DNA of 64,000 nt from assembly GCA_965212015.1 (NCBI GenBank), contig OZ243037.1:640001-704000 (forward strand), read 5' to 3'. Made by a program: the position numbers and the translations under genes. The first letter of the stretch is position 1, and every line of letters starts with the position of its first letter. The notes below the pieces were generated by a model. It made no database searches. It had not been told where the DNA came from and worked only from the letters and a program-made list of their open reading frames with translations. Source of the stretch: Cenarchaeum sp. Its GTDB lineage: Archaea > Thermoproteota > Nitrososphaeria > Nitrososphaerales > Nitrosopumilaceae. This document shows, piece after piece, positions 483 through 19,289 of the stretch.

Positions 483-2108
483 TCAAGCAGATGATTTGTT
501 GTATTTCCATAGTTCGGCAAAATATTCATCAGCCAATTCTATTGATGGAAGCACATCTAATATTCGAATCAATCTAAATTGCTCTGTTCCACCCATACGT
601 GGACCGCGCATCCCACGTCCGATCATTTGTTGATGAAGCACGATTGATCTAGTCGGCCTAGCTATAAAGACGACATCGATATTAGGTGCATCAAAACCAA
701 CTGCAAAGACATTCACATTACAGATCACTTTGATTGTGCCATTTTTGAATTTTGATATCACATCTCGTCTATATTCAATTGGAGTATTACCGTCAACATG
801 TGCAGCATTACCACCCAGTGCTAAAATTATGGCACATATCAGTTTTGATTGTTTTATGTTTGGGGCAAAATATAGTATCTGTTTGTTCTCATTTATTAGC
901 TGTTTTAATCGTTCAACAATCATGACGTTTCGTTCATAATCCATTGCAATCTTGTCCAATAATTCCAATGGCAGATCATGATCCGCGGCAAATTTACGTC
1001 GCTGTTCCTGTGTTAGGATAAACTCTCTATTGGATTCAATAGTCTCTGGGTCACAGTATGCAAGATATCCCTTTGACTGAAGAAATGAGATATTGTCCAT
1101 ATCACCGGAATCAATCTCAATTATCTGATCATTGAAATATTCTCGTAGTTTTTCATTCTCTGGATTATTCATCCCTCTTACCGGCGTAGCTGTTAAACCA
1201 ACTATTCTTGTTCCCTTTTTTTCAAGCTGGCGTATGATGTTTTTATGCGTAGGCGCAATGATATTGTGAGCTTCATCTGCTACGACTAGTTCAGGTTGGG
1301 GAAAATTGTCTGTTCCTAGTAAATTATTCAGCTTTTGATATGTGGCAACTATGAATGCGTTGGGCTTAAAATCACTAACAGTGTTTTGACCCCACATGCG
1401 ATACACGTGCAATTCATCTTTTCCCAAATGCGACCAAATTTCTTGCATTGATGATATGGCCTGCTCACATAGTTCTTCTCGATCGGCAAGCCATACTGTC
1501 CGTCTCTTTTCATCATTTTCAATGCCATTGTTTAGAAAATTACTTACTATTTCTAAAGCTGTGCGTGTTTTTCCTGCACCTGTGGGCATTTTTATGATAA
1601 AACGTGTCCATTGATTCTCTACTGTACTCATTCCTTCATAGAAGATCTTACTTTGATATTCTTTGAGCATTCTCAGAGGTTTGATTGATGATATTGTAAA
1701 TTCAGCCGCATTATCTTGTGTCGGTTCCGGCAACATGCTGATGTCATATCCAAATTCCTCGATGAATGCACGTGTCTCATCATTATGTCCCCAGGTTAGT
1801 TTTGAAGCCTTTTCAATCAGAGTTGCATATTCCTTATCATTCTGAAATGATCCGATGCCGATCCTATTGAAAAATCTAAGGCATGTTTTTCTATCTGCAT
1901 ATTTGAGAAGTTGTGCACGAAATGTTGATTGTTTGTATGAGGATATGTTAAGTGCATGATGAAGCTTTCCCATGATTTCTTTTGTTTCAATATTAAAATC
2001 TTGATCAGGTGCAATTTTATCTAGAATTAAGTTTATAGGATCCCAATATTCTCTCAAAGAGGTTTCTAATTCACTGCGTGGGAGCTTTTCATTAAGCACT
2101 AGCTTCAC
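483..2108 (-). CDS. Superfamily II DEAD/DEAH-box helicase (ResIII-like + Helicase_C)
   Basis: MPTGAGKT Walker A, DEAH, GLTATP, GFDAP, QMIGRGMR motifs. Confidence 0.9.
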   Translation of the reverse strand: MKLVLNEKLPRSELETSLREYWDPINLILDKIAPDQDFNIETKEIMGKLHHALNISSYKQSTFRAQLLKYADRKTCLRFFNRIGIGSFQNDKEYATLIEKASKLTWGHNDETRAFIEEFGYDISMLPEPTQDNAAEFTISSIKPLRMLKEYQSKIFYEGMSTVENQWTRFIIKMPTGAGKTRTALEIVSNFLNNGIENDEKRRTVWLADREELCEQAISSMQEIWSHLGKDELHVYRMWGQNTVSDFKPNAFIVATYQKLNNLLGTDNFPQPELVVADEAHNIIAPTHKNIIRQLEKKGTRIVGLTATPVRGMNNPENEKLREYFNDQIIEIDSGDMDNISFLQSKGYLAYCDPETIESNREFILTQEQRRKFAADHDLPLELLDKIAMDYERNVMIVERLKQLINENKQILYFAPNIKQSKLICAIILALGGNAAHVDGNTPIEYRRDVISKFKNGTIKVICNVNVFAVGFDAPNIDVVFIARPTRSIVLHQQMIGRGMRGPRMGGTEQFRLIRILDVLPSIELADEYFAELWKYNKSSA

Positions 2109-3845
2109 CTAAACTTTGTATGATTTTCTTAGGTGATGACTCCATTTTAGCATGTGTTCTTCTACCGTATCTTTAACGGATTGCATCCTAGTCAGATCAT
2201 CTAGATCATATTGTCCTTCAGCATATGCATAAAGAAGCCTGTCAATATCAGCCCTTAATGCCTTGCTTGCCTTTTGTAGATCTGATTTTTGCGGATCTAT
2301 AGCCATAGATTCAATTTCAGAGATTCGACGATTGATTTCTACAAAAAATGGGTGTTGCATGTTATAATGAATTACCTTCTTGCCTACATCATCAAGTACA
2401 TCGATAAATGTACCATCGGAACGTGCTTTGTAATCATGAATTATTTTATAGACTATGCTGGGATCCGTTACAGCCTTGACATAATCTGCCTGTTCATCTG
2501 GATTATCGGATATGTCTTTTGATCTATTTTCTATATTCTCTTTTATGTGGTCTTTGGTATCGGTCGATTGCATCGGTGCAGTTATTGGTGTCAATGTCTC
2601 TTCTACAGTTTTATGGCTGTTTATGGGGCCTTTATTTTCTTCATTTTCTTTTTGTTCCTCCGCATCTGCAGCTTCTTTTATTGTTTTCCTAAAATTATTA
2701 AGTATAGTTGGATTGAGTTTTTTTTCTAATATGTCCCTAAGATCTTTAAGCGGTCTAGCACCAACTTTAATATTTTTTACTGAAAACCAATAATCTAAAA
2801 CAGAATCAAAATCAATCTCACATCCCCAAAATCGATCTAGAGGTTTTGCTACAGGTGAGAATCTTGGTATTGGTCCATAATATACTTCGCGTCCATTTCT
2901 CAATATGGAAAATCCTTCGTTATATGGAATTCGTCTTTCTGCACTATGCTTGCTAGTTCCACCATATCCTGGTATGCCGGCATTATCTTTCTTTAACCTC
3001 CAAGATTCTGGCAGTATCGATGTTCTGATTATGATTTTACCTTTTCGCTCACCGCTATTGGGTCTGTCTACATCATGTACGTTATGCTCAAATGAATGTT
3101 CTGGTTGAAGTACTGCTCTTTCATCATCTGGAAATTTAGAGTTTTTTGTAACATATAGAGGATCATGAGAAGCAATTAATTCATTGTTGGAATTATCGGC
3201 CACAAATATTTTTCGTTGATTGTTATTTTTCTTGATCTTGCCGTTTTCTATAATTTCCTCACCTATGAATTTACGATAAATCCTACCAAGGTGATGTTTA
3301 ATCTCCTCAACTTTGAATTCTGAATCAATTCTGTCTATATTGGTCCAAATTACTAGTGTGCCATGATCTCCTACAAGATCTTTGTATTTTGCAGGTAAAT
3401 CTCTTTGTTCGATAGGGCTTAAAGAGGGCTCTACATCATTGTCAATTCCACTGATATCTAAAAGCGTATAATTCCAATTTCCTTGTTTTGCTCTAGAATA
3501 TACTTCAATTTTATTACATACATTGATTGCACCCATAGTCATTCCTACCCCAAATCGTCCTATACCTTTTCGATCATCATATCTGTTTGAATAACCAATG
3601 GCCAAACAGTGCTGAAGTGTCTTAGAGTCCATTCCATGACCATCATCACCAAATGCTATGGCAATTGGACGAGGCACACGTTGGCTCCCCAACGTGTCCA
3701 TTTCAAATTTAATCCTGATCTCTTTTGATTCTGCCTGAATGGAATTATCAACTACCTCATAGATTGCAGAATATGCATCAAAATCGTTGTTACGTAGTGA
3801 TTTTATAGCTGCGCCGACCCGTATAGGGGATATTTTTGTAGACAT
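2109..3845 (-). CDS. GHKL/MORC-like (HATPase_c_3) ATPase
   Basis: EVVDNSIQA, DDGHGM, GRFGVGM, HGTLV Bergerat-fold motifs; S5-like GFSILRNGR; abuts helicase. Confidence 0.88.
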   Translation of the reverse strand: MSTKISPIRVGAAIKSLRNNDFDAYSAIYEVVDNSIQAESKEIRIKFEMDTLGSQRVPRPIAIAFGDDGHGMDSKTLQHCLAIGYSNRYDDRKGIGRFGVGMTMGAINVCNKIEVYSRAKQGNWNYTLLDISGIDNDVEPSLSPIEQRDLPAKYKDLVGDHGTLVIWTNIDRIDSEFKVEEIKHHLGRIYRKFIGEEIIENGKIKKNNNQRKIFVADNSNNELIASHDPLYVTKNSKFPDDERAVLQPEHSFEHNVHDVDRPNSGERKGKIIIRTSILPESWRLKKDNAGIPGYGGTSKHSAERRIPYNEGFSILRNGREVYYGPIPRFSPVAKPLDRFWGCEIDFDSVLDYWFSVKNIKVGARPLKDLRDILEKKLNPTILNNFRKTIKEAADAEEQKENEENKGPINSHKTVEETLTPITAPMQSTDTKDHIKENIENRSKDISDNPDEQADYVKAVTDPSIVYKIIHDYKARSDGTFIDVLDDVGKKVIHYNMQHPFFVEINRRISEIESMAIDPQKSDLQKASKALRADIDRLLYAYAEGQYDLDDLTRMQSVKDTVEEHMLKWSHHLRKSYKV

Positions 3846-3936
3846 TTCTATACAGGGGTAATTATATGCTCTTTTTAATCTATTGGCATATCAGGGCTTG
3901 TATTCATGTACAGTCTTCTTGGGAATCTGAGATCTA

Positions 3937-4902
3937 TCAAGTTTTTCTAATTCTCTGGGATCTGGCGCCAGGCACATCTATCCTGTATCTGCCATTTCCC
4001 AGCTTTTCGAACCATTCCAGTAAAACCTGGACGTTTCCAGTCAGCTCCCTCCTACTCGGCACCGGCACGTCCGTACAGTTGTCCTGAATCCATTCCTTGA
4101 TTCTCCCAAAATATGCCTCTGGAGCGATAAACTCGTCAATCTTCCGGATAAATGAATGCTCGAAAAATTGTGTGGATAATTCCTGCAAAAACTCTTCTTT
4201 TGAAAGCCCGCTGCCAATGTCATAGTTTGCCAGATCATGAAATACACATGCTGCAATCTCGGGATCATCAGATGGTAACTGATCCGCAGCAATTCTTTGA
4301 TATCCGGTTACCAGATCATCCACGCTGCGAGTCATCGGCAGTGCAGATATCAGAAAATCATCCTTTTTTGGCGCTGATATGATGTCCTTTAGTTTGACCT
4401 GCTCTGGCAATTCAACCTTGTTGTTCTCGCTCCATTTTTTGAGCTCTTCATACATTGCATCATCGGCCAATCTTGCCTCACGCCGAATTTTTTCAAAGAA
4501 CAATCTGTCCTTGTTAGTCAGATTTTCAATCAGAGTTGCAGCCTCATAGTTGCCATCCGGTAGCAATCCCCTGTGCGAGATGTTTCCTGTGGCAAGAATT
4601 GCGCTGGAAAGATCAACAGAATACACCTTGAGATGCATGTTTTCGCTGATGTATAACGCAATGTTTCTTTCCTTGCAGAATGGATACAAGGATAATTCTG
4701 ATGATCTAAACTGGATATCTTTTGGCTCCCAGGTGGTGACAATCACCACTTTGTTTTCTATTCCATCCAAAAGCTGCATCAGCACCTTGGTCTTGACATA
4801 TGGAACAAAAAGAAATATCGTCTCATCTGGGTCACACTGTTTTAGATATTCCCTGATATGCTCATACAGTGGGCTGTGATAAAGATCGGTCAAATCATAC
4901 AC
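3937..4902 (-). CDS. Phospholipase D-family (HKD) nuclease domain protein
   Basis: FVPY and HLKVY...ATGNISHRGL...NYEA motif typical of PLD-like nucleases. Confidence 0.75.
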   Translation of the reverse strand: MYDLTDLYHSPLYEHIREYLKQCDPDETIFLFVPYVKTKVLMQLLDGIENKVVIVTTWEPKDIQFRSSELSLYPFCKERNIALYISENMHLKVYSVDLSSAILATGNISHRGLLPDGNYEAATLIENLTNKDRLFFEKIRREARLADDAMYEELKKWSENNKVELPEQVKLKDIISAPKKDDFLISALPMTRSVDDLVTGYQRIAADQLPSDDPEIAACVFHDLANYDIGSGLSKEEFLQELSTQFFEHSFIRKIDEFIAPEAYFGRIKEWIQDNCTDVPVPSRRELTGNVQVLLEWFEKLGNGRYRIDVPGARSQRIRKT

Positions 4903-4903
4903 C

Positions 4904-5677
4904 TCATTTGTAATCCGGAAATCGGTCTTTTATGTATCTGACTTGATCTTTCACGTCTAGCTTTTCCGCCCTTGGGGACGGGCCCCTCACAAAGAATGTC
5001 TTTTCTTTTCCGCAAAGCCATAGGGGACTATTTGCAGGCAATACCTGTATTATGCAGACGGTCTTGTTATCAATAACCCGAAATTTCATCTCTAGTCTGC
5101 TAGTGACAAACACGCGATCCTCCAGTAGATTTTCCAATCTGTCCCTCATGTGATTTGCAAATGAATCCTCATAGTCGGAAAACCCGCCGAATTTTTTATC
5201 CCTGTCCAGACCCACAACAGTACCATTTGACTTGATACCAAGATACACAAATCCTCCCTTTTTGTCGTTCCCAAAAGAGCATATCGCTGTGGCAAATCTC
5301 TCCTGTACGGATTTTTTTATGCCATCTATTGCTTGTTTGCTCTCTGGGGCCTGTTTTTCCAATAATTTCCCTATACTTTCATCATACTGGTAAAATTCCT
5401 TGAATTCATTTTGCTTGTCTTCAGTATCCGGTATCTCTATTTTGCCTAGATCGACAAATCTCGGAGCAGCCGTTGCTTTCTGTACCTTGATGTTTTTGAC
5501 ACGTCCCACCTGCCCGTCCTCCAGCCTGACCTTGATTCCGTGTGGGTGGGTCTCGCTGGAGGTCAGAATCTCGGCCACCACACCGTCAGTCAGTCTGCCC
5601 GTCCCTTGGTTCTCCTTGGTCTCAATCGAGACCACACATCCGCCTTTGATCTGGTTTCTGATCGGAGTCTCCGGCAT
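4904..5677 (-). CDS. YwbE (DUF2196) - Schlafen/AlbA_2 fusion protein
   Basis: N-term TGRLTDGVVAEILT...HPHGIKVRLEDGQVGRV (YwbE); C-term EDKQNEFKE...ICSFGN..GGFVYLGI (AlbA_2). Confidence 0.8.
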   Translation of the reverse strand: MPETPIRNQIKGGCVVSIETKENQGTGRLTDGVVAEILTSSETHPHGIKVRLEDGQVGRVKNIKVQKATAAPRFVDLGKIEIPDTEDKQNEFKEFYQYDESIGKLLEKQAPESKQAIDGIKKSVQERFATAICSFGNDKKGGFVYLGIKSNGTVVGLDRDKKFGGFSDYEDSFANHMRDRLENLLEDRVFVTSRLEMKFRVIDNKTVCIIQVLPANSPLWLCGKEKTFFVRGPSPRAEKLDVKDQVRYIKDRFPDYK

Positions 5678-6245: not shown

Positions 6246-6725
6246 GTGAAAATCTCCTTCAGGGTGTGCGGCAAGCCTCCGAAAAAATCAAGCGGGGGCT
6301 CGATTTGGACCGGCGAGTCAAGATCCGAACAGGTCCTAGATCTGCGCAGATCCGCGGCAGGTGAAAAAAAGAGGATAAACATGGAGTATCCTATGAGGGG
6401 CCCGCTAAGGATCAAACTGACAATACACTCCTCACAGGACATCACGAAAAAGGAGGATACCCACAATTACATCGGGGATCTGGACTCGCTTGTGGCCGGG
6501 GTGTGCGATGCCCTGAGGAAGGCAGATGAGAACGTCACGCCTCACGTGCGGTTCAACCAATACAAGGAAGTCGACCCGAAAAAACCCCTCATAATCGAGG
6601 ACGACTCGAACATAACTGCAATCGAGGCCAGCAAGATCAAGGACACCGAGGAATACTATACGGTGACAGTTGAGGAGATCCGGAATTCTAGCATGTGCGG
6701 ATTCCTGAAAAAAATCCGGGGCTGA
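6246..6725 (+). CDS. RusA-like Holliday junction resolvase/endonuclease
   Basis: G-x-P-x-x-K N-terminus, GDLDSLVAGVCDAL and IIEDDSNI acidic motifs characteristic of RusA. Confidence 0.65.
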   Translation: MKISFRVCGKPPKKSSGGSIWTGESRSEQVLDLRRSAAGEKKRINMEYPMRGPLRIKLTIHSSQDITKKEDTHNYIGDLDSLVAGVCDALRKADENVTPHVRFNQYKEVDPKKPLIIEDDSNITAIEASKIKDTEEYYTVTVEEIRNSSMCGFLKKIRG

Positions 6726-6825: not shown

Positions 6826-7149
6826 TTGGTAAAATCCAAGGAATCGATCAAGGAACGATACCGAAAATACCAGAGGGAATATCATAGGAAATATTATCAA
6901 AAGCCGGAGACAAAGGAATGGGTTAGAGAATACAACCAGAGGCCGGAGGTAAAGGAAAGGCTCAGGAAATACAACCAAAGGCCGGAGGTAAAGGAAAAGC
7001 TCAGGAAATACAACCAGAGATCGGAGGTAAAGGAGCGGATCCGAAAATACCATCAGAGGCCGGAGGTAAAGGCGCGTAAAAGATATTTGGCAAAGATGAG
7101 GAGGATCCGTGGGAAATCCAAGACAAAGACCCGTAGAAAATCATACTGA
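6826..7149 (+). CDS. Highly basic repeat protein (YNQRPEVKERLRK 13-aa repeats)
   Basis: TTG start; tandem 39-bp coding repeats; paralogue immediately downstream. Confidence 0.65.
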   Translation: MVKSKESIKERYRKYQREYHRKYYQKPETKEWVREYNQRPEVKERLRKYNQRPEVKEKLRKYNQRSEVKERIRKYHQRPEVKARKRYLAKMRRIRGKSKTKTRRKSY

Positions 7150-7773: not shown

Positions 7774-7920
7774 GATGGTCCTTGGGTAGTCGGGCTGGCC
7801 TGCCAGCCCGACGGTGTGGTGGTACGGGGCTCCCGTCAGGGAGCCCGGGGAAAAGACGTTGATGGAGCCGAGTGAGAGTTCGTTGTCGGGGGATTGTGAG
7901 GTAACTGCGAGCTGAAAATC
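7774..7920. repeat. Conserved hairpin-rich element, copy 1 of 5
   Basis: GTCGGGCTGG-cctg-CCAGCCCGAC stem (7789-7812), GGGCTCCC-gtca-GGGAGCCC stem (7827-7846), TGTGAGGTAACTGCGAG at 7895. Confidence 0.9.
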
Positions 7921-7937
7921 TGTTCGGAGAGTTTGAA

Positions 7938-8122
7938 AAAGGTGCAAAAGGGGTCAGTTAGTGACGCAAAATAAGTCACCGGAAAAGGAGTCAAAGGTGC
8001 AAAAGGGGTCAGTTAGTGACGGAAAATAAGTCACCGGAAAAGAAGTCAAAGGCGCTTTAGGGGTCGGAGAATTAGGGGTCGAAAGCGCCTTAGGGGTCGA
8101 CGATAGGCGCTTTAGGGGTCGG
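7938..8122. repeat. Iteron-like array 1 (55-bp period x2, then TTAGGGGTCG x4)
   Basis: GGTGCAAAAGGGGTC at 7941 and 7996; GTC motif spacing 22/33 bp. Confidence 0.85.
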
Positions 8123-8283
8123 ACATCGGTGGGGCTTGAACAGTTTTGATTTTTGTAATTGGATATCGTGTTGGTGATATGGAAAACCCAAGTGAACCTG
8201 ACTCCGCCTGACACAGGACTGTGATTGCCAAAGTAATACAGGCCGTATGATTCGAGGTCGGTCCGAGCCTACCCATCCTGTCA

Positions 8284-8443
8284 GGCCGGGACTCTGATTT
8301 GGGCGGTCGGGCCGGCTCACGGCCCGACGGTGTGATGGTACAAGGCTCCCAACGGGAGCCTTGGGAGATGACCTTGAAGGCCAGGATGAGGTCGTCATTG
8401 GAGGGTTTGTGAGGTAATGCAAGTCGAAAATCCGCGCGCGGGG
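8284..8443. repeat. Conserved hairpin-rich element, copy 2 (most diverged)
   Basis: GTCGGGCCG-gctca-CGGCCCGAC, GGCTCCC-aac-GGGAGCC, TGTGAGGTAA at 8408. Confidence 0.85.
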
Positions 8444-8459
8444 CGGAATCCCACGATGA

Positions 8460-8621
8460 AAATACATGGTTTCCATGGTTTTTTTACATGGATTCCATGT
8501 TCTGGAAAACAGGCAAAACATGGTTTCCGTGGCTTTTTTACATGGATTCCATGTTCTGGAAAACCTGTAAAACATGGTTTCCATGTTTTAAAAAACAGGC
8601 AAAACATGGATTACATGGTTT
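8460..8621. repeat. Iteron-like array 2 (palindromic ACATGGWTTCCATG units)
   Basis: Units at 8465, 8487, 8519, 8541, 8573, 8605 (spacing 22,32,22,32,32). Confidence 0.9.
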
Positions 8622-8786
8622 GACGCGGGTCTGAATGATTCCGGCCTCTACATGAATGACAAAAGACGTTAGGAAACAAGCCTCTGCCACTCGTTTATCC
8701 TGACCGTTTCCTGAATAGCTAGATTACATCTGGGGGCTAGGATGATCCTGATACCGTTGGCCAGTGCCAGCCTTGGTGTGTGGTTT

Positions 8787-8975
8787 GGGCCGGGACTCCG
8801 GCCCGGGATGATACTGGGCAAGAGGGCCGGCTCTGCCGGCCCGACGGTGTGGTGGAACGGGGCCTCCCGTCAGGGAGCCCCGGGAAAAAGACATTGAGAT
8901 TACTGAATCGTGGTTCGTCGTTGGGGGGTTTGTGAGGTAACTGCGAGTTGGAAATCCGCGCACGAGGCTTGAAAA
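8787..8975. repeat. Conserved hairpin-rich element, copy 3
   Basis: GGGCCGG-gact-CCGGCCC, GGGCCGGC-tct-GCCGGCCC, CTCCC-gtca-GGGAG, TGTGAGGTAACTGCGAG at 8931. Confidence 0.9.
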
Positions 8976-8977
8976 AT

Positions 8978-9135
8978 GGCACTTTTGCAGTCAAAAAAAT
9001 GTAGGCAAAAGCATTTTTGCAGTCAATTTTTGGCACTTTTGCAGTCAGTAAAAAGATGCCAAAAGCATTTTTGCAGTCAAAAAAATGCAGTCAAAAGCAC
9101 TTTTGCGGTCGAAAAACGACCCTTTTGCGGTCGAA
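8978..9135. repeat. Iteron-like array 3 (TTTTGCRGTC units)
   Basis: GCRGTC at 8987, 9019, 9041, 9073, 9105, 9127 (32,22,32,32,22), plus one off-lattice copy at 9087. Confidence 0.9.
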
Positions 9136-9233
9136 ATGGATCCGGATGACAGGACGGCTCAAAAGCCAGAGCAGATAACAGAGTCGACCTGCCATCAAGA
9201 TTGAGAGACTCCCCTTGGTGATGTGGGACCTGC

Positions 9234-9551
9234 GGGCCTTGGTGACCTGTACGGGCCTTGGTGACCTGTACGAGTGTGTACGGGCCTTGGTGACCTGTAC
9301 GAGTGTGTACGGGCCTTGGTGACCTGTACGGGCCTTGGTGACCTGTACGAGTGTGTACGGGCCTTGGTGACCTGTACGAGTGTGTACGGGCCTTGGTGAC
9401 CTGTACGAGTGTGTACGGGCCTTGGTGACCTGTACGAGTGTGTACGGGCCTTGGTGACCTGTACGAGTGTGTACGGGCCTTGGTGACCTGTACGAGTGTG
9501 TACGGGCCTTGGTGACCTGTACGAGTGTGTACGGGCCTTGGTGACCTGTAC
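9234..9551. repeat. Perfect tandem repeat: 29-bp unit GGGCCTTGGTGACCTGTACGAGTGTGTAC x9 plus three 19-bp truncated units
   Basis: Counted directly; units identical, no unique spacers. Confidence 0.95.
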
Positions 9552-9565
9552 GGACTCGTATCCTG

Positions 9566-9751
9566 TCCGGGCCGGGACTCCGGCCCGGATGGTTCTGGGC
9601 AAGAGGGCCGGCTCTGCCGGCCCGATGGTGTGGAGATGGGGGCTCCCGCCAGGGAGCCCGAGGAAGAGACGTTGAGATTACTGAATGGTTCGTCGTTTGT
9701 GGGTTTGTGAGGTAACTGCGAGTTGGAAATCCGCGCGCGGGGCTTGAAAAA
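9566..9751. repeat. Conserved hairpin-rich element, copy 4
   Basis: TCCGGGCCGG-gact-CCGGCCCGGA, GGGCCGGC-tct-GCCGGCCC, GGGCTCCC-gcca-GGGAGCCC, TGTGAGGTAACTGCGAG at 9706. Confidence 0.9.
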
Positions 9752-9899
9752 CGACCTCTTTGCGGTCGGTTTTCGACCCTTTTGCGGTCGAAAAAAAGAG
9801 GTCGAAAGCACTTTTGCGGTCGAAAAACGACCCTTTTGCGGTCGAAAAAAAGAGGTCGAAAGCACTTTTGCGGTCGAAAAGCGACCCTTTTGCGGTCGA
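9752..9899. repeat. Iteron-like array 4 (TTTGCGGTCG units, 54-bp period)
   Basis: GCGGTC at 9762, 9784, 9816, 9838, 9870, 9892 (22,32,22,32,22). Confidence 0.9.
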
Positions 9900-10127
9900 T
9901 ATGGTAGGATGACAGAGCGGCTCAGGAGTCGTAGTAAGTAACACCGAGTCGGCTGGCCATCAAGATTGGAACAGACCCATTGGTCATGTGGCCTGTGGCC
10001 AGCCTTGGTGATCTGTGGGAGTCGTGACTTTTCCAGATGGTTTTGGGTAAGATGACCGGCTCTGGCCGGCTTGGTGTGTGGTCCGGCCCGGATGATTCTA
10101 GGTAAGAGGGCCAGACCTGCCGGCCCG

Positions 10128-10265
10128 AGATGGTCCTTGGCTAGTCGGGCTGGCCTACAGCCCGACGGGATTTGGTATGAGGCTCCCGCCAGGGAGCCTT
10201 GGGGAAAAGACGTTGAGATTACTGAATCGTGGTTCGTCGTTTGTGGGTTTGTGAGGTAACTGCGA
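10128..10265. repeat. Conserved hairpin-rich element, copy 5 (degenerate partial modules upstream at ~10036-10128)
   Basis: GTCGGGCTG-gccta-CAGCCCGAC, GGCTCCC-gcca-GGGAGCC, TGTGAGGTAACTGCGA at 10250. Confidence 0.9.
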
Positions 10266-10309
10266 ACCTGCTGCTACAAACACGCGCGTGCGGGGGATAT
10301 TAGGCATAT

Positions 10310-10836
10310 TTTTGCGTACACTCAGTGTACCGTCACGTAGCACCCAGTGTACGCAAAAAGGGTACACTTGGTACACTTGGTGTACCCATACGTAGCACTT
10401 GGTGTACCCAGTGTACGCAAAAAGGGTACACTTGGTACACTTGGTGTACCCATACGTAGCACTTGGTGTACCCAGTGTACGCAAAAAGGGTACACTTGGT
10501 ACACTTGGTGTACCCATACGTAGCACTTGGTGTACCCAGTGTACGCAAAAAAATGCATTTAATGCATTCAAAAAATGCATTTAATGCACTCAGTGTACGC
10601 AAAAAAATGCATTTAATGCATTCAAAAAATGCATTTAATGCACTCAGTGTACGCAAAAAAATGCATTTAATGCATTCAAAAAATGCATTTAATGCACTCA
10701 GTGTACGCAAAAAAATGCATTTAATGCATTCAAAAAATGCACTTAATGCACTTTGTGCTACCTCACGTGGCTCTTTGTGCTACCCCCGCATAGCTCTTTG
10801 TGCTCTTTGTGCTACCCCACGTAGCTCTTTGTGTCC
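10310..10836. repeat. Composite iteron-like array 5: 64-bp x3 (10345-10536), 54-bp x4 (10537-10752), CTTTGTGCTAC units (10751-10836)
   Basis: CAGTGTACGC at 10345, 10409, 10473, 10537, 10591, 10645, 10699; ATGCATTTAATGCA at 22/32 spacing; CTTTGTG at 10751, 10773, 10805, 10827. Confidence 0.92.
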
Positions 10837-11056
10837 TTTTTACCCCAAGTTGATCTGTGGCAACAGATACAGAAATTAAAGATAAATTAAATCCCGTGCG
10901 GTCACACCAACATCTGTTTTCCCGCGCCCCAAAACCAATAATGATTTCCAAACAGGACTGGCAGAATCCAAGACATCAATCAAGTAAAGGCTCAGACGCC
11001 AGAGGCATGGCGTAAGAGTCATGCTCCTGTAACTTGTGCTCGTTGTACCGCCGACA

Positions 11057-12589
11057 CTAGGATTCCCGCGCGGTTGCCCGGCGCACAAGGAACCTGCCGT
11101 CGGAGAGCTCCGTGTCCACCTCCCACCCCTGGGCAGAATGCTCCAGCAGGCTCTGTTCATCCTCGATAATTCGGCTTTCATATGGGGCATCCGCCTTGGC
11201 AGGTCTTGCCGGTATTTCCTTGGGGACCGTGACAGAATCGTTTCGGATCAGGGAAGTCGGATCCATCCCGTACATCTTGGCCTGCTGCCGCCACAGGTTG
11301 AGTAGCATGTCCTTTTTGTTAGCGCCGTCGGCCTTGAGGTCCGTAGCCAGAAACGTCTGACTCTGCGCGTACGCGCGCCTCATGTCCTCCGTCATCTGCT
11401 CTGTGAGCCTGCCCTTGTTGGTGGTGTATCGAGCCTCCATGTCGCCCTTGTGTCCCATAAAGAATTGTCTGTATGCGTGCGTCATGCACCCGTGGCTTTC
11501 GGCCATGAGCATCTGCGTGTCAAAGTATGCCCTCAGGGCGTACGGGCGGATCTTCATCACGCCCCAGATCGTCCTCCGTATGCTCTCCGATATGGCCGGC
11601 GTGGTCAGAAATAATGTGTCCGATTTCTTACGCTGCCCCCTTTCCTGGTATCCATTGTTGAACGTAATGAGCGGCGAGTCCGGTTCCAGTATATCGCCGT
11701 GCGCGATACGCTGCCGCAGATATCCCAAAAGATACTCACATCCCTGCTTTGTCAGGAACGTAAAGTACTTGTTTTTGGTCTTGCTAAGCTGGGCGCGGAC
11801 GACAATCATTGCCGGCATCTTTTCAAACGACACCCTGTCGCCGTCGATGCGCAGTTCCGGCAGATCCGAGAGTTTCAGCCCGTCACCCTTGTCAGACGTG
11901 CCCATCACCTGGGGGCGGATGCCGGAGAATGCCATCATGCCTACGATGAGCTTTGTGCGCGGGGATCCTGCGCCTAGAATCTGATCAAGTTGCTCCTGCG
12001 TGGGGACCTGCTCGTCCTCTATGCTTACCGCAATGCTGGCGTTTCTCACCTTTATTTTGCGCCTTATCTCGATGTGGTTGTATTCAAGCCACGACTTTAT
12101 CGCCTTTATCATCCCCTCTGTGTAGCCCGGCGCGTAATTCTGTTTTTCCATCCACGAGACGTGATCAAGCAGAATGTTCTCCATGTCCATTGGATTGTCG
12201 CGTCCTATGGTAACCAAGTTTGTAGGAGTCTTGTCAACCCTGTGGCAGAACAGATTGAGTCTGCGCAGCCTTACCTTTGAGTTGAGTATGCTAGAGCGCG
12301 CACAGTTTTCATACCAGCGTCTAACGTCATCATCCTTCAATAGTATAACTGGAGCTTGTGTCGTCACCTGATTCCACCGGATGTTATCAAAACGCGTTCC
12401 CCTATTTTTCCTTTTTGTTGTACGATTTTTTTCGTTAGGAATTATATTAGAGGAGTTTTCATGTTGTGTAATAACCGCGCGCTTTTTTTCCGGTTCCCTG
12501 TCAGGGCGCCGTGAGTTTGCACTCTTTATTTGTAGGCGAGGCTTGCAGTCGGCTTTTGAATTTACAGATTTTGTTTTCTGTTTTTTCAT
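11057..12589 (-). CDS. Tyrosine recombinase / site-specific integrase (start uncertain)
   Basis: SGIRP (catalytic R), RPYALRAYF, FMGH, ARYT (catalytic Y). Confidence 0.88.
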   Translation of the reverse strand: MKKQKTKSVNSKADCKPRLQIKSANSRRPDREPEKKRAVITQHENSSNIIPNEKNRTTKRKNRGTRFDNIRWNQVTTQAPVILLKDDDVRRWYENCARSSILNSKVRLRRLNLFCHRVDKTPTNLVTIGRDNPMDMENILLDHVSWMEKQNYAPGYTEGMIKAIKSWLEYNHIEIRRKIKVRNASIAVSIEDEQVPTQEQLDQILGAGSPRTKLIVGMMAFSGIRPQVMGTSDKGDGLKLSDLPELRIDGDRVSFEKMPAMIVVRAQLSKTKNKYFTFLTKQGCEYLLGYLRQRIAHGDILEPDSPLITFNNGYQERGQRKKSDTLFLTTPAISESIRRTIWGVMKIRPYALRAYFDTQMLMAESHGCMTHAYRQFFMGHKGDMEARYTTNKGRLTEQMTEDMRRAYAQSQTFLATDLKADGANKKDMLLNLWRQQAKMYGMDPTSLIRNDSVTVPKEIPARPAKADAPYESRIIEDEQSLLEHSAQGWEVDTELSDGRFLVRRATARES

Positions 12590-12703
12590 ATTGAAAGCGC
12601 CACTAGACCCGCTTCCACTGTGGGTTCGGGTCTTTCCCTGGCAAAATGCCCACAAACCGGTATCCGCGGGTGATTAACGCCCCCGCTTTTGCTGTATCGG
12701 CAA

Positions 12704-14334: not shown

Positions 14335-14496
14335 TTATGACTCGTTGCCGGCCTTGAGGTAGAGCCTGTCTCCTTCCCTCTCAAAGACGATCACATCACC
14401 CTTTTCGAACCTGCAGCTGTTTCGGACCCGTTTCGGGATGGTAATCTGGTACTTGTATGATACCACGGTTGTGCCTAGGATTTCCTTGTTATTCAT
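14335..14496 (-). CDS. AbrB/MazE/SpoVT-family DNA-binding protein (53 aa, not in ORF track)
   Basis: MNNKEILGTTVVSYKYQITIPKRVRNSCRFEKGDVIVFEREGDRLYLKAGNES; QITIPKxVR...GD motif. Confidence 0.88.
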   Translation of the reverse strand: MNNKEILGTTVVSYKYQITIPKRVRNSCRFEKGDVIVFEREGDRLYLKAGNES

Positions 14497-14557: not shown

Positions 14558-16474
14558 TTGAAAAGTAAGGCAAAAAAGGCATCTCAGATGGCCAAATGTA
14601 CTACAATGCTAAAGTGGTATTTTCCACCAACAGGTGGTGGAGTAACTCAGGGATTTAATGATGGTTCACAAGAATTCTTCCGATCTAATGCATGGGAGCA
14701 GACCATAAGAGAGATAATTCAGAATTCACTTGATGCTGTAGATGATCGAAGAGACGGGCCAGTAAAAATAAACATCTCTGAAATAACGATACCTGCATCA
14801 GAGATAGGAGCCACTGATCTTGCTGGCCACATAAGCAAGGCTTTGGAACGCACTAGAAAACAAGAATCCACCACAGGGAGTAAATTTTACGAAAATGCAT
14901 TGAAGGTTTTAAATCAAAATGAGATCAAAATGCTTGCAATAACTGATACTAACACTACAGGTTTAGTGGATGAAAAATGGGATGCGCTGATATATGATGA
15001 AGGTACATCAAGTAAAGGTGGTATAAATGCAGCAGGAGGAAGTTTTGGCATTGGAAAAAATGCACCATATGTGGTTTCAGATTTAAAAACTGTATGTTAT
15101 TCCACACGATATCTAGGCAAGGGAAGAATTGAAAAGTTTATTGCTCGATGCAAGATTTCTGCACATGAGAATCCCGATGAATCTTCTAAAGAAATGCTAC
15201 AACACATAGGATTTGGAACTAAAACAAAATTAGCAAAAAATATTCGTCCTTTACCAACAGAAGGAAGTGACATTCATCAACTATTTCGTCTTGATGAATA
15301 TGGAAGTGGAATATTTATTATGGGATTTAATCCACAACTAAAAAATTGGATCAAAGTGGCCAAAAAATCTATAGCACATAATTTTTTTGTTGCAATACAT
15401 GAAAAGAAATTAGAAATTTATATAAATTCTGATCCGATAAACTATGAAACATTAGATGGTATATTTGAGGATGATCGTAAAAAAGAACCTACTCGTCACT
15501 ATTATCATATCATCCGTGATGATATTAAGAAAGAAATTGTAGAAGGAGATCTGGGAAAATTTACAGTACAAATAAATATTGATGATGAAGATGCACCAAA
15601 CCAAATTGCATATATAAACCGAAGAGGAATGATGGTAACTGACAAGCGTATTTTCGATGAAAATCCATTTTATACGGCAGTTGGAAAAGGTTGGGCCAAA
15701 TATGCAGTAGTAATTATGTCACATGATGATGCAACAGATATGAAAATACGTATGATGGAGCCGCCTAACCATCAATCAATCGAATACAAGCGCATCAATG
15801 ATCATAAAAAACGAGATTCTATGGAACGACAACTTCGTGTCATAAAAAATAAAATTACTGATATTATTAACAACGCAATTTCCGACAGTAATCATGAACA
15901 TGACATAAATCTATCAGAACTTGCAGACATATTGCCTTTTCCTGATGATTCAGGAAAAGAAGGTATTGAACAAAGTGAAAAAGATCAGTCTCTAGATCAT
16001 CATACTATAGAGTCTGGCACATCATCTCATATCGTAGATGATGATGGATTAGATTCAGGTAAAAAGTTAGGTGGGACCTCAGATACACATGGAAAGAATC
16101 ATAAATCTATTTCTGGTCGCAAAATAAGCAGTAAAGGAACACCAATTTTGCATCGTCAGCGAATTGTGCGCAGCAAGGATATACTCCGTGTTGCATTTAC
16201 ATCACGTCAAAATAATGGAAAACCAGTGTGCTTTGGCATCAAACCTGTAGGTGAAGAAAGAAAAAATGAAATCATGATTCCAATAACTTCGGCCCGTGTG
16301 GAAACACCATCGAATTTTACCATTAAAATGAATAACAATCGTATAACCATGACTCCAAAATATGATGAACGGGTTGTAATGGATCTAAAAATACCTCAAA
16401 CCAAGTCATATACAGGATATGAGATCATTGAAATAGTACAAAACAAAAAACCCTCAAAAGGTAATAAAAAATGA
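14558..16474 (+). CDS. GHKL-like ATPase domain protein
   Basis: REIIQNSLDA, ITDTNTTGL, GGSFGIGK motifs; first gene of an overlapping operon. Confidence 0.75.
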   Translation: MKSKAKKASQMAKCTTMLKWYFPPTGGGVTQGFNDGSQEFFRSNAWEQTIREIIQNSLDAVDDRRDGPVKINISEITIPASEIGATDLAGHISKALERTRKQESTTGSKFYENALKVLNQNEIKMLAITDTNTTGLVDEKWDALIYDEGTSSKGGINAAGGSFGIGKNAPYVVSDLKTVCYSTRYLGKGRIEKFIARCKISAHENPDESSKEMLQHIGFGTKTKLAKNIRPLPTEGSDIHQLFRLDEYGSGIFIMGFNPQLKNWIKVAKKSIAHNFFVAIHEKKLEIYINSDPINYETLDGIFEDDRKKEPTRHYYHIIRDDIKKEIVEGDLGKFTVQINIDDEDAPNQIAYINRRGMMVTDKRIFDENPFYTAVGKGWAKYAVVIMSHDDATDMKIRMMEPPNHQSIEYKRINDHKKRDSMERQLRVIKNKITDIINNAISDSNHEHDINLSELADILPFPDDSGKEGIEQSEKDQSLDHHTIESGTSSHIVDDDGLDSGKKLGGTSDTHGKNHKSISGRKISSKGTPILHRQRIVRSKDILRVAFTSRQNNGKPVCFGIKPVGEERKNEIMIPITSARVETPSNFTIKMNNNRITMTPKYDERVVMDLKIPQTKSYTGYEIIEIVQNKKPSKGNKK

Positions 16475-17307
16475 GTCATACGAACTTCTTGCTACCACAT
16501 CCAATAATTAAACCTGGAGGATTTGACTACAATGAAAATTGTCACTTTGACATAGAGATAAAACAGGCCACGACACTTGATGGAAATATCCACATTGAGA
16601 TATCATGTGATCTGTCCAGTTTTACTATAAATGATCTCATAAAGAAAGAAAAAGCAAAATTTTTTATTACTTTAAAATGTGTTAAAACCCATCAAAGAAT
16701 CACACATAGCTTTACAGAAACTTCCATGGTTTGGGATATTCCGATGTCTAACTGTGTCGATAAAATAAACATAACGCCATATGTGGCAACAACTGAGGAA
16801 ATACCAGCATTTTACTCCAAAGAACATGATGATGAAATTCAACAAATGATTCCTGATGGCGTAGATCTTCCGACAGGTGCCATTTTGGCAGTAGGAAAAT
16901 CACACGAAATCACGATTGATGCGATAGAAAAGATCCAAGCTGCCATCAAGATAATCCAAAATAAGGAATTGGAAGTAGGAACTTACGCCATAGACACCAG
17001 TGGCGATTATCTAGACATTCAAATGCATCCTAAAACACAAAACAGCATACGTAATATACACAACCAATCAGTAGAACTTTTGTATCCATCAATTTACCTG
17101 ACTGCCATCGAACAAGCCATACGTGATATGGAAAATTATAAAGATCGCAAATGGGCACAAGCTTTGCACAAAACTCTAGAAAAACACAATATTGAGATTG
17201 ATTATGATAAATTAAAGGAAGAAGCAAATAAGCATGCCCAGACAATACTGAACAAACCATTGGATCGCATCATACAATGGCACAATCGAGAGAATGAATA
17301 TGATTGA
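16471..17307 (+). CDS. Hypothetical protein
   Basis: 278 aa; stop/start overlaps with both neighbours as given in the ORF track. Confidence 0.8.
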   Translation: MSHTNFLLPHPIIKPGGFDYNENCHFDIEIKQATTLDGNIHIEISCDLSSFTINDLIKKEKAKFFITLKCVKTHQRITHSFTETSMVWDIPMSNCVDKINITPYVATTEEIPAFYSKEHDDEIQQMIPDGVDLPTGAILAVGKSHEITIDAIEKIQAAIKIIQNKELEVGTYAIDTSGDYLDIQMHPKTQNSIRNIHNQSVELLYPSIYLTAIEQAIRDMENYKDRKWAQALHKTLEKHNIEIDYDKLKEEANKHAQTILNKPLDRIIQWHNRENEYD

Positions 17308-18919
17308 AAGAGAACCCCTTTACAGATTTACCCATGAAGCATTTGAAATGTTATTCAAGAACTTTGAAAAACATCTTGAACATTACAAGAATCCTGATGC
17401 AGATTTTATCAAACTATTAACAGAGAATGGAATCAATAATTACAAAGAACCAATAATCGCGCATATCATTAATCCAATCAAACTTGAATTGACAGAGGGC
17501 AAACCATCCCATCTAGCAGACATTCAGGCACTCGATTTTTATAATTCCTTTGAAGGCATGACGCCTAGACTTGCGTCAGATCCACGTGTACTGGCATATC
17601 TGAATCATTTTTATTTTCACAAGTATGGCATTGCTCGCTGGCCGATATCTGCAAGCACAAAACCAGAACATATGCGTAGACATTGGCTTACGCGTAGCAC
17701 AGAAAATACTCACATATGGAAATCAAACATTTCGGGCAGAACCTGGTGGATTGCACATATGGCCATCAAGGCAGCAGAGTCTTCGGCCGGCACATTTGAT
17801 GCAAAGCAAGCATTGAAAAAATTTACAGAAGCTCCAGAATATTACCATCGCACCATGGAATATGCCATACTCAAAAATCATACGCTTATGGCAGAATTCA
17901 TCAGAGCATTACACAGGGAGGCAGAGGGTATAAACCGTGATGGATACATAGCCATGGCAAAGGAATTAAACCTGGAGGCTGGTGCAAGGCTAATTGATTC
18001 GCTGGACAGACAATACCTGCGTAAACTAGTACAGCGTGCAGCAGATCGTCAGATGTGCAATCCAAAATCTGTTACAAATCGCAAATATATTCATAATGTG
18101 AAAAAATTCAAAGTGTTGAGTTTGGGAGCTGGAGCACAGTCTACCGTGTTGGCGCTCATGGCAGAAGAGGGATGGAATGGACTTGAAAAACCAGATCTAG
18201 CTATATTTGCAGATACTCAATGGGAACCACCGAATGTATACGAGCACCTAGATTGGTTAGAAAAACAGCTATCGTATAAGGTAATTCGAGTATCTGCAGG
18301 AAACATACGTGAGAACATACTAAACGGTGTCAATTCAGATGGAGACAAATTTATGGACATACCGGCATTTTTAGTAAATCCTGATGGAAGTAAATCCGTG
18401 GCCCGCAGACAATGCACTACGCATTATAAAATAAGACCCATACACAAGGAGCTTAGAAAACACCTCGGCATACCAACCGGTCGACGTGCTCCAAAAGATA
18501 TTCAGGTAGAAATGTGGCTGGGTATTAGTGCAGATGAATCAAATAGAATTAAACCTAGCAGAGATGAATGGATCGACAATCGATATCCACTTATTGAAAA
18601 GGACATGACCCGGGCCAACATATACAATTGGTTTAGTGAGAGGTATCCGGATCGTCGTTTGCCTCGCAGTGCATGCGTAGGATGTCCTTACCACAACAAC
18701 ATGGAGTGGAAATGGATCAAAGAAAACGATCCGGATTCATTTGAGGAAGCAGTCAATGTTGACTGGTCGCTTCGTAATGTTCAAAAGACACGTGGTACAC
18801 TCAAAGGAGATGCGTACTTGCATCACACGCGCAAACAGTTAAACAAAGTGGATTTTAGCAAGACAGAAAATTATGATGACTATATGGCGAGCGAATGTGA
18901 GGGACTCTGTGGTGTCTGA
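17294..18919 (+). CDS. Fusion: DUF6339-like N-terminal domain + PAPS-reductase-like PP-loop domain with Cys clusters
   Basis: N-term TPRLASDPRVLAYLNH..ARWP..ISGRTWW; C-term LSLGAGAQST, AIFADTQWEP, RQCTTHYKI, WLGISADE, YPL, SACVGCP, ECEGLC. Confidence 0.75.
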   Translation: MNMIEREPLYRFTHEAFEMLFKNFEKHLEHYKNPDADFIKLLTENGINNYKEPIIAHIINPIKLELTEGKPSHLADIQALDFYNSFEGMTPRLASDPRVLAYLNHFYFHKYGIARWPISASTKPEHMRRHWLTRSTENTHIWKSNISGRTWWIAHMAIKAAESSAGTFDAKQALKKFTEAPEYYHRTMEYAILKNHTLMAEFIRALHREAEGINRDGYIAMAKELNLEAGARLIDSLDRQYLRKLVQRAADRQMCNPKSVTNRKYIHNVKKFKVLSLGAGAQSTVLALMAEEGWNGLEKPDLAIFADTQWEPPNVYEHLDWLEKQLSYKVIRVSAGNIRENILNGVNSDGDKFMDIPAFLVNPDGSKSVARRQCTTHYKIRPIHKELRKHLGIPTGRRAPKDIQVEMWLGISADESNRIKPSRDEWIDNRYPLIEKDMTRANIYNWFSERYPDRRLPRSACVGCPYHNNMEWKWIKENDPDSFEEAVNVDWSLRNVQKTRGTLKGDAYLHHTRKQLNKVDFSKTENYDDYMASECEGLCGV

Positions 18920-19241: not shown

Positions 19242-19289
19242 GTATGATCATGCCATTTGAATATCTTTTACTTTCCATGGAGATATGTC

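Follow-up and report, generated by a model that had tools for sequence, protein, structure and literature searches.

Five tandem hairpin-and-iteron cassettes in Cenarchaeum sp.: candidate adaptor-binding sites from integrated archaeal elements

Introduction

Why does an archaeal chromosome carry a gene-free stretch of about 3 kb that consists of five tandem cassettes, all on the same strand, in which a conserved, hairpin-bearing part is followed each time by a different block of repeats? The question is raised by positions 7774 to 10836 of a 64,000-nucleotide stretch of Cenarchaeum sp. DNA, hereafter called the window, which corresponds to C1:640001-704000 of a closed 1.76-Mb genome. An original prediction, made from the letters alone, described this locus as a library of protein-binding sites of different specificity. 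The analyses presented below establish the anatomy of the array, its paralogy, its gene neighborhood, the conservation of its architecture across genera, and the origin of a gene-less (orphan) cassette from a full module. We assign a probability of roughly 60% to the reading that the stretch represents five copies of one cis-acting module from integrated plasmid-like elements of Nitrosopumilaceae-type archaea, and the same probability to its companion claim that AbrB-type adaptors, as parts of an actin-like/TraG-like DNA-handling module, would bind the variable blocks as arrays of sites.

Results

An exact search for the 10-mer TGTGAGGTAA, the anchor of each cassette, returns five occurrences at 7895, 8408, 8931, 9706 and 10250, all on the + strand, with anchor-to-anchor spacings of 513, 523, 775 and 544, just as the original prediction had it. 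When one mismatch or fewer is permitted, the whole window contains 6 matches versus 2.81 expected, and 8 of 100 shuffles reach 6, which is within chance. We judge the repeat to be real not from the 10-mer count alone, but because approximately 180-220 nt around each anchor can be aligned, with a mean column identity of 69% for the five window copies and 73% for 11 genomic copies. The nhmmer E-values of the five window copies range from 8.8e-44 to 2e-62.

Two GC hairpins are located 5′ of every anchor, and each copy carries one to several such hairpin units. Specifically, hairpin 3 (GGCTCCC-loop-GGGAGCC) is invariant in 11 of 11 copies and exhibits compensatory changes at its base, where two pairs are changed on both sides, in three sequences each, with G-U cells that fit the + strand only. 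A linker of ~50 nt leads from hairpin 3 to a box (..TTCGT..TTTGTGAGGTAACTGCGAG..) with the conserved core ..TTTGTGnnGTAAnTGCGAG.., and 3′ of each box lies a tandem-repeat block that is different in every cassette. The periods of these blocks are 55, 54, 54, 54 and 64/54/23-31 nt, and the units match each other at 65-100% in the tandem-repeat rows of the cassettes, and at 96-100% in most blocks. Alignment and tandem-repeat analysis agree with the predicted arrangement of GC hairpins before each anchor and a cassette-specific repeat block after it, and the variable-number tandem repeat (VNTR) that had been proposed to lie within the 775 spacing is real, with its 29-nt units matching at 100%.

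Within the blocks, palindromic sites of 15-17 nt are spaced by 22, 32 or 54 bp, and this phasing is kept in every block, as compiled in site tables. The sites of cassettes 3 and 4 and those of a complete module located at 324 kb (described below) share a central CTTT-rich spacer and A-tracts, whereas their 5-nt arms differ, and do so uniformly across all sites of one block. Such a concerted change of arms, with constant spacer and phasing, has the look of co-evolving recognition sites, as far as letters can tell. Furthermore, the outer arms of cassette 4 are those of the 324-kb module sites, and the arms of cassette 5b (ATGCAT..ATGCAT) are those of the sites of a second complete module at 756 kb. 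Window positions 9211-9901 match the VNTR-constant-iteron stretch of the 324-kb module at 72% over 756 nt. Motif scans find GCGCTTTAGGGGTCG-like sites, as in cassette 1, in a sole other genomic cluster at C1:324353-324407, whereas the ACATGGWTTCCATGK motif clusters nowhere else in the genome than in cassette 2.

The predicted noncoding, constant-plus-variable design is upheld by searches that yield neither a credible family match for an open reading frame (ORF) nor an Rfam family. Five of the longest ORFs of the stretch have no Pfam match at E <= 0.001, one of them having a weak match to DUF3106 (E 0.005) that falls under its cut-off. The window has 0 matches to Rfam 15 at gathering thresholds, and at E <= 5 there are none on the constant part, only sub-threshold miRNA-type matches confined to the palindromic iterons. 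A tRNA scan of the window gave no calls. We concur that the array is not a CRISPR, given a constant part of ~180-220 nt at 69-73% identity and variable parts that are internal tandem repeats. Neither is it a coding integron, since its cassettes hold no coding sequence and the integrase-like genes lie 3′ of the array, pointing toward it. In contrast, the suggestion of stacked minimal non-autonomous elements, in the sense of units with ends of their own, is not borne out: among the 25 longest of the 59 inverted repeats found, none are terminal inverted repeats that bracket a cassette, as all 25 are internal to iteron blocks or link the iteron blocks of cassettes 3 and 5, and the copies represent one cis-site module minus its gene.

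The original prediction named misassembly as a concern, and this is allayed for three of the four junctions between cassettes. Contigs of sequencing runs X1 and X2, which may themselves come from the source sample, are identical to the window across the junctions c1-c2 (7833-8509), c2-c3 (8535-8816) and c4-c5 (9870-10158), whereas the c3-VNTR-c4 junction is bridged by no contig in the runs compared. In runs X3 and X4 of a second study, the c2-c3 junction (8572-8893) is present in diverged form, with 32 letters changed and 8 gaps, and includes a copy of the cassette 2 tail. Other run-contig joints (7764>9255, 8403>9701, 9588>10131) could be taken as alternative cassette orders of related strains, but a paralogous array or short graph contigs explain them equally well, and they were not used.

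The constant part occurs in 15 genomic copies (17 nhmmer rows): five in the window, three at 1,162.7-1,164.7 kb, one cassette at 1,134.2 kb, the two complete modules at 324.5 kb (- strand) and 756.5 kb, and partial constant parts at C1:159458, 947584, 1108185 and 1144006, each with different break points. The partial copies had prompted the idea of a crossover within the loop of hairpin 3, which this variation rules out. The second array (C1:1162726-1164700) is colinear with window cassettes 3 through 5 at 68-80% identity and has the same order of variable blocks, including that of cassette 3 (at C1:1162923), and the colinearity extends through a conserved segment past the last cassette. Both arrays have a lysine/arginine (K/R)-repeat gene upstream, the window genes having their paralogs at C1:1161736 and C1:325042-326367, likewise 5′ of arrays, and paralogous genes for proteins of 470-532 amino acids (aa) downstream on the opposite strand. 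Constant parts are more similar within one array than across arrays.

The two complete modules reveal the gene that accompanies these sites. Each of them, at 324 kb and at 756 kb, has a VNTR, then the constant part, the iterons, a TATA-like box within ~35-60 nt, and an abrB gene. The adaptors encoded at these two loci are 110-125 aa in length, versus 100-125 aa for complete elements overall, and match MazE_antitoxin (E 6.8e-5 and 1.7e-4), and a profile of eight adaptor members finds MazE (1.5e-5) and AbrB (2e-4) among solved structures. Among the 100 clusters of adaptor homologs listed, 8 carry PF04014, two are named AbrB/MazE/SpoVT by NCBI, and source names are hypothetical, AbrB/MazE/SpoVT or antitoxin. 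In 93 of these 100 clusters, the final 10 residues contain the motif PL[KRDEN][DERGNK][LVIM], and the adaptors of complete elements end in a conserved peptide (..NPLKDLDL or ..PSRLEKLRIK). To judge from its sequence, the C-terminal motif is a short linear motif of the partner-docking kind.

Convergent with abrB runs a gene whose 1036/1038-aa product matches TrwB_AAD_bind, AAA_22 and TraG-D_C and groups with archaeal TrwB_AAD_bind+DUF87 clusters in Atlas. A phmmer search with this TraG-like protein against the PDB gave no match, and an AlphaFold2 (AF2) model of its N-terminal 410 aa from a 7-row alignment (pLDDT 45.5) was too poor for a fold search. Actin-like ATPase genes (279-281 aa) are present at C1:319968-320807 and 760395-761240, with matches to MreB_Mbl (1.7e-9) and ALP_N (4.1e-6) and weak actin matches in the PDB. 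A complex prediction for the actin-like ATPase with AbrB tail residues 86-125 scored 0.86 versus 0.77 for one control, and we use it neither way. The 324-kb module, which is ~7.4 kb in full, also carries a Phage_integrase gene, such that its content is an integrase, an actin-like ATPase, a TraG-like ATPase, AbrB and a K/R-repeat gene.

A hidden Markov model (HMM) search of 20,373 six-frame ORFs finds only two adaptor-type genes genome-wide (2e-39 and 1.6e-37; next 1.8e-8). Because there are only these two, every cassette of the window and of the second array, five and three in number, is an orphan, as is the lone cassette at 1,134 kb. By the same whole-genome search the window has no adaptor-type gene, and the ORFs examined beside the array include no actin-fold ATPase gene. 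The third, weak AbrB-like ORF (E 1.8e-8) encodes 80 aa at C1:326898-327137 (+), just past the K/R gene of the 324-kb module. The window also contains a 53-aa ORF of MazE/AbrB fold at 14338-14496 (-) (PF04014, E 2.3e-7) without the adaptor C-terminal tail, which is probably an ordinary antitoxin or regulator.

The association of repeats with adaptor genes extends beyond this genome. At E <= 1e-13 there are 23 adaptor-type abrB genes, found in G000 and six genomes of two further genera. By a TRF criterion, a tandem repeat ends 25-110 nt upstream of 16 of these 23, versus 7 of 291 control ORFs drawn from this genome. The periods are 53-55 nt in seven of the 16, 32 or 64-66 nt in two, and 9 or 18 nt in seven that belong to an AT-rich genus. 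In two of the genomes (G086 and G104), the order is VNTR, GC hairpins, a T/G-rich run, box, iterons, TATA-like box and abrB, with TraG-like and actin-like genes convergent with abrB. The box can be aligned over ~25 nt across genera g1 and g14. TraG-like homologs are present in 22 of 200 other family genomes.

Two side observations concern the variety of these loci. In G086:C1, a different VNTR (15-nt unit, 10-33 perfect copies) occupies the same position before the hairpins at L098 (9922-10418) and L099 (4423-4570). Because this repeat takes the place of the 19/29-nt one, the VNTR is conserved in architecture and not in sequence. G104 carries seven adaptor-type abrB genes, some of them in tandem at distances of 1.1 and 4.5 kb and each with its own iteron block, as at L153 (G104:C2, 3200490-3201825) and L152/L156 (2039138-2043911). 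Stacking with genes retained therefore also exists, since these tandem genes each have distinct iterons.

How gene-less cassettes arise can be seen in G086, where two elements hold such a cassette between two abrB genes. Compared with the complete module of another co-resident element, the identity of these cassettes is 80% and 92%. The alignment reaches into the first ~120 nt of abrB and contains six gaps (3, 1, 6, 2, 8 and 4 nt), and the TATA-like box is altered; the abrB remnant is frameshifted, and the iterons are nearly unchanged, with one unit lost. Because the alignment continues into a decayed abrB, the orphan cassettes of G086 are modules minus the gene, with sites kept. The cassette 3 and 4 tails of the window can be aligned with the K/R genes, from their 3′ end through their downstream flank to the VNTR junction, and the multiplied unit is therefore tail-VNTR-hairpins-box-iterons. 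We had considered these tails as remnants of the abrB 3′ end, given PSRL(E/R) in one frame. Homology to the 324-kb module ends ~35 nt before the abrB start, and the idea was dropped because the tails align with the K/R-gene flank instead.

The array sits between the K/R-repeat genes and two integrase-like genes (Table 1), and the cassettes lie inside an integrated element. The 532-aa integrase-like protein is 65% identical to a 470-aa paralog whose gene adjoins tRNA-Lys (C1:1166580-1166656). Copies of the 3′ end of this tRNA are found at C1:1136461-1136477 (17 nt, 30 kb off) and at ~1145544-1145558 (15 nt, 21 kb off), giving spacings of 9 and 21 kb, and one of them is located just past the 1,134-kb cassette. 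The pattern suggests a tandem series of three integrated elements, in each of which a cassette or its remnant lies close to the integrase end. A 374-aa protein, encoded at C1:1134983-1136107 (-) and in near-identical copies in at least six places (1091465, 1437364, 30054, 405979, 1122584 and 1702594), is probably an insertion sequence (IS) transposase; one copy occupies the expected integrase-like position after the 1,134-kb cassette.

The assignment of the integrase-like proteins draws on several partial clues. NCBIfam XerA matches only their N-terminal part and far under its cut-off (E 5e-5 and 3e-3), two of the 120 homolog clusters listed are named 'site-specific integrase' by NCBI, the 470-aa paralog is encoded beside tRNA-Lys, and the motifs RPYxLRAYFDT and MGHKG..RYT can be discerned by eye. 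These proteins have no Pfam match, and hhalign against a bona fide Phage_integrase protein gave nothing. Matches of their alignment to TALE repeats in the PDB were judged spurious, and an AF2 model of the 420-aa paralog (3-row alignment, pLDDT 44) was too poor for a fold search. This protein family has more than 3,800 homologs and is present in 53 of 200 Nitrosopumilaceae-family genomes (a count that includes the unpublished G101), often in multiple and often in broken copies.

Table 1. Coordinates of the cassettes and of the genes that adjoin them in the window
Feature	Position	Strand	Remark
K/R-rich ORF of 13-aa repeats (..QRPEVKER..), first of two	6826..7149	+	39-nt tandem repeat
Second K/R-repeat ORF, 177 aa	7230..7763	+	Stop 11 nt 5′ of cassette 1
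Cassette 1 constant part	7774..7937	+	GC hairpin 2, hairpin 3 (~7826-7848), box, anchor 7895-7904
Cassette 1 iterons	7938..8125	+	55-nt unit x2.1 (GTGAC..GTCAC type), then GCGCYTTAGGGGTCG x3, like those of the 324-kb module
Cassette 1 tail	8126..8289	+	Without internal repeats
Cassette 2 constant part	8290..8463	+	Most diverged copy; anchor 8408-8417
Cassette 2 iterons	8464..8618	+	Five 15-nt palindromes ACATGGWTTCCATGK, spacing 22/54/32/32
Cassette 2 tail	8619..8775	+	
Cassette 3 constant part	8776..8976	+	Three hairpins; anchor 8931-8940
Cassette 3 iterons	8977..9133	+	TGGCACTTTTGCAGTCA type, 54-nt period, last two sites GGTCG-type
Cassette 3 tail	9134..9232	+	Aligns with K/R-gene 3′ end and downstream flank (pre-VNTR junction); MAFFT; BLAST of 9213-9268 against the second array
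VNTR, GGGCCTTGGTGACCTGTAC core	9233..9552	+	Mainly 29-nt unit; same VNTR 5′ of constant part at C1:324718, 756221, 1162612
Cassette 4 constant part	9553..9743	+	Anchor 9706-9715
Cassette 4 iterons	9744..9898	+	CGACCCTTTTGCGGTCG, 54-nt period, outer arms CGAC..GTCG
Cassette 4 tail	9899..10040	+	Same family as cassette 3 tail
Cassette 5 constant part	10041..10303	+	Extra hairpin units; anchor 10250-10259
Cassette 5 iterons, three blocks	10304..10833	+	First block GGTACAC..GTGTACC, 64 nt x3.3, 100%; 5b ATGCATTTAATGCAY x8, 54 nt x4.0, 99%, arms of the 756-kb module; third block CTCTTTGTGCTACC type
Conserved non-repeated segment, last cassette to integrase-like gene	10834..11056	+	Also at C1:1134540, C1:1164700
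Integrase-like gene, 532 aa (putative divergent tyrosine recombinase family)	11057..12655	-	Weak NCBIfam XerA
Integrase-like paralog, 420 aa	12704..13966	-	

The K/R-repeat proteins that precede the array form a multi-copy family with a 13-aa repeat (Y.QRPEVK.R.R.), also encoded at C1:325042-326367, 881187-881897, 1145952-1147331 and 1161736-1162545. In this genome their genes usually lie directly 5′ of a VNTR and constant part, and the proteins match nothing in Pfam, PHROG or NCBIfam. These genes do not belong to the conserved module, because none were found beside the modules of G086. Such a protein could be a modular nucleic-acid binder.

Several other features of the window deserve mention. 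A 159-aa ORF at 6246-6725 (+) has a weak PHROG match to RusA-like Holliday-junction resolvases (E 5.7e-6), which fits a mobile-element origin of the 4-14-kb segment. At 483-5677 (-) are genes for a ResIII/DEAD helicase, a GHKL (HATPase_c_3) ATPase, a weakly matching PLD-like protein and a DUF2196+Schlafen/AlbA_2 protein, which are probably defense genes. On the other side, the low-GC region 14558-24680 (~36-40% GC) has genes for DndB, an HNH endonuclease, a DUF6339+PAPS-reductase protein and a ClpP-like SDH protease, a content that resembles a defense island of the DNA-sulfur-modification type. A partial tRNA 3′ half is located at its edge (~24640-24678), for which ARAGORN makes no call.

Discussion

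To account for these observations, we hypothesize that the 22/32/54-bp phasing puts the palindromes on one face of the helix, and that an AbrB-type protein would bind its own block cooperatively and repress its own promoter. The bound block would form a nucleoprotein handle, which the C-terminal peptide of the adaptor could couple to an actin-like and/or DNA-translocase motor for segregation or transfer. We infer both the identity of the binder and the effect of binding from sequence comparisons. Whether the output would be segregation (with parC-like sites) or transfer (with clt/oriT-like sites) is close to an even bet. By this model, module duplication or stacking and the loss of abrB would have left the window cassettes with their site blocks and without promoter and gene, such that they could act only in trans. 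Because cassettes 4 and 5b share the arms of their sites, the resident adaptors encoded at 324 kb and 756 kb could dock on these cassettes of the window element, resulting in hitch-hiking or titration. We consider it about equally probable that the window orphans act in trans in this manner or are relics.

A number of points weigh against this interpretation. The PF04014 scores of the two adaptors (23.2 and 21.9 bits) are below the gathering threshold of 24.7, and 7 of the 23 abrB genes have no upstream repeat by the TRF criterion. The putative partition and transfer roles are read from family names alone. The constant part, which the model leaves unexplained, might serve as a nick or loading site, a terminator or insulator, or a distal promoter, or might be an RNA. 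Sequence searches also find little of it elsewhere: BLAST detects it in 0 of 60 relatives, with one 29-nt match in five further genomes, and an nhmmer profile of 11 copies has no match even at E 10 in 25 relatives' loci. The searches among relatives that had been proposed with the original prediction came back nearly empty for this part, whereas nhmmer found the ~15 copies within the genome itself. Because the constant part goes undetected elsewhere, the likeness across genera consists of the architecture and the ~25-nt box only. A loose pattern scan returned 3 viral and 42 genome-contig matches, all single and in unrelated bacteria, which we read as chance, and the one match of a stricter pattern in metagenome contigs was rejected as an unrelated terminator-like hairpin. 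In addition, no cognate gene for the specificities of blocks c1a, c2, c3 and c5a was found in any genome examined. Finally, the window lacks adaptor, actin-like and TraG-like genes, so that any function there is either exerted in trans or absent.

If the window cassettes do act in trans, they might constitute a functional site library, a proposal to which we give perhaps one chance in four or five. In one version, a gene-poor integrated element would hitch-hike in a satellite-like manner on the adaptors of several helpers and be segregated or transferred by whichever helper is present. Alternatively, the host could maintain the array to titrate the adaptors of incoming relatives and so destabilize them, amounting to an incompatibility-based anti-plasmid defense, with the array sited in a defense island.

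It is less probable that the stretch is a non-functional relic, produced when tandem elements at a tRNA hot spot were trimmed by deletion and their repeats expanded by slippage. Such a history would suit an integration hot spot strewn with degraded constant parts of varied break points, an IS within the 1,134-kb copy, tails that resemble remnants of the upstream gene's 3′ flank, and the decayed gene of the G086 orphan. However, decay by itself does not predict iteron units that are 96-100% identical within most cassette blocks, a phasing that is preserved in all of them, or a c3-c4-c5 order that is kept between arrays only 68-80% identical. Likewise, the iterons of the G086 orphan are far better preserved than the adjoining abrB remnant.

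About as unlikely is iteron-type replication control, by which the blocks would be origin or incompatibility iterons for an initiator, and those without a gene would titrate or handcuff it like incA of P1 or incC of F. Iteron plasmids do look like this, with phased blocks of sites, extra gene-less blocks and an autoregulated neighboring gene. The 17-nt and 15-nt sites, the 22-bp phasing and the presence of additional gene-less blocks nearby are what such a system would display. However, a Rep, primase, helicase or Orc/Cdc6 gene was not seen anywhere in the full 324-kb module (~7.4 kb), the window flanks have no match to a Rep, primase or helicase family, and by eye the blocks adjoin no AT-rich unwinding stretch. 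Moreover, we know of no AbrB-fold proteins that serve as initiators. The original prediction of protein-binding-site arrays of different specificity retains its core, which is favored by the concerted arms and by blocks that front a gene for a small DNA-binding protein, whereas a Rep protein as the binder gives way to the likelier adaptor of AbrB/MazE fold.

A structured noncoding RNA gene, or a promoter-terminator unit from which the iterons are transcribed, is an improbable identity for the cassette. The compensatory pairs of hairpin 3, with G-U cells fitting only the + strand, are of the kind an RNA would produce, as is the folding of the constant part of cassette 3, which exceeds that of shuffled sequences (z-scores of -3.54 for the + strand and -2.77 for the - strand). 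A T-rich run comes after the hairpin in relatives, whose box has a TA-rich core. However, both strands fold well, as GC palindromes do, the constant part matches nothing in Rfam at either threshold, and the variable part bears the hallmarks of DNA sites, namely palindromes, helical phasing and A-tracts. Least credible of all is an integron-like platform in which the constant part would be a recombination site for the neighboring tyrosine recombinases and cassettes would be captured and shuffled: two integrase-like genes do flank the array, and the greater similarity of constant parts within arrays fits recombination or conversion, but the array is at the 3′ side of these genes rather than divergent from them, the cassettes have no ORF and keep their block order between arrays, the partial copies break at different places, and the ambiguous run contigs yield no demonstrable circles or alternative orders.

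To our knowledge, hardly anything has been learned about the maintenance, segregation or transfer of mobile elements in ammonia-oxidizing archaea, and we know of no genetic system for these organisms. A recognizable cis-module of hairpins, box and phased iterons can now be paired in at least three genera with a protein trio that consists of an AbrB-type adaptor with a candidate docking peptide, an actin-like ATPase and a TraG/VirD4-like ATPase. This pairing provides testable protein-DNA pairs of differing specificity, as well as candidate stability or transfer determinants for thaumarchaeal vectors. Similarly, orphan blocks, two of which resemble the sites of co-resident adaptors, make cross-talk between archaeal elements, whether hitch-hiking or incompatibility, amenable to testing. 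A site library that acts in trans, if it is real, would represent a new kind of mobile-element interaction in archaea and would define an AbrB-adaptor/actin-like/TraG-like DNA-handling machine.

Some of these features have precedents among known systems. In Streptomyces conjugation by TraB and clt, an FtsK-like translocase recognizes 8-bp repeats. The complete modules resemble this system in that an ATPase of the FtsK/TraG superfamily is encoded beside a block of short cis-acting repeats, on an element able to integrate. They differ from it by their actin-like ATPase and by a small DNA-binding protein that is separate from the translocase, with no sign that the TraG-like ATPase itself recognizes the sites. 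Iteron plasmids likewise carry separate control arrays, as in P1 (oriR/incA), F (ori2/incC) and RK2 (oriV). The window shares with them sites of 15-19 bp, a phasing of ~22 bp and gene-less blocks that could titrate a binder, and in the complete modules the gene adjacent to the sites would likewise be autoregulated. Unlike these plasmids, neither the window flanks nor the 324-kb module shows an initiator-type protein or an unwinding element, most cassettes have palindromes rather than direct repeats, and one array holds many specificities.

For the integrated elements of Thaumarchaeota, the main text of Krupovic et al. (2019, PMC6563490), which also cites Konieczny et al. (2014), describes integration linked to tRNA genes, elements arrayed in tandem at a single site, ATPases of the VirD4/TraG type and small cryptic elements, and tRNA-linked, tandem integration and an ATPase of this type are evident here too. 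Unlike what is described there, the elements studied here carry cassette arrays and the AbrB/actin-like/TraG-like module; the terms 'AbrB', 'actin' and 'tandem repeat' have 0 occurrences in that main text, and its Table S2 could list related elements. In the parts of the literature we consulted, we found no description of such arrays or of such a module in Thaumarchaeota.

Type II partition systems, such as ParM-ParR-parC of R1, ParMR of pSK41 and AlfA-AlfB-parN, combine genes for an actin-fold ATPase and a small DNA-binding adaptor, as the complete modules do. In the modules, as in these systems, tandem sites abut or overlap the adaptor promoter, the adaptor ends in a short conserved C-terminal peptide, and the whole can reside on a mobile element able to integrate; a relative of this kind is the srpMRC locus of the SXT/R391 integrative and conjugative elements (PMC4489591). 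The window itself exhibits the phased tandem sites of such a system, whereas the actin-fold and adaptor genes are present only in the complete modules. The adaptor of the modules is predicted to have an AbrB/MazE swapped-hairpin fold where that of type II systems is a ribbon-helix-helix protein, its gene is convergent with the ATPase operon, and a TraG/VirD4/HerA-like ATPase of ~1040 aa is added. The archaeal arrangement is further distinguished by its host, by a leader of hairpins and box together with a VNTR that precedes the sites, and by the stacking of gene-less blocks that the window displays in five successive copies.

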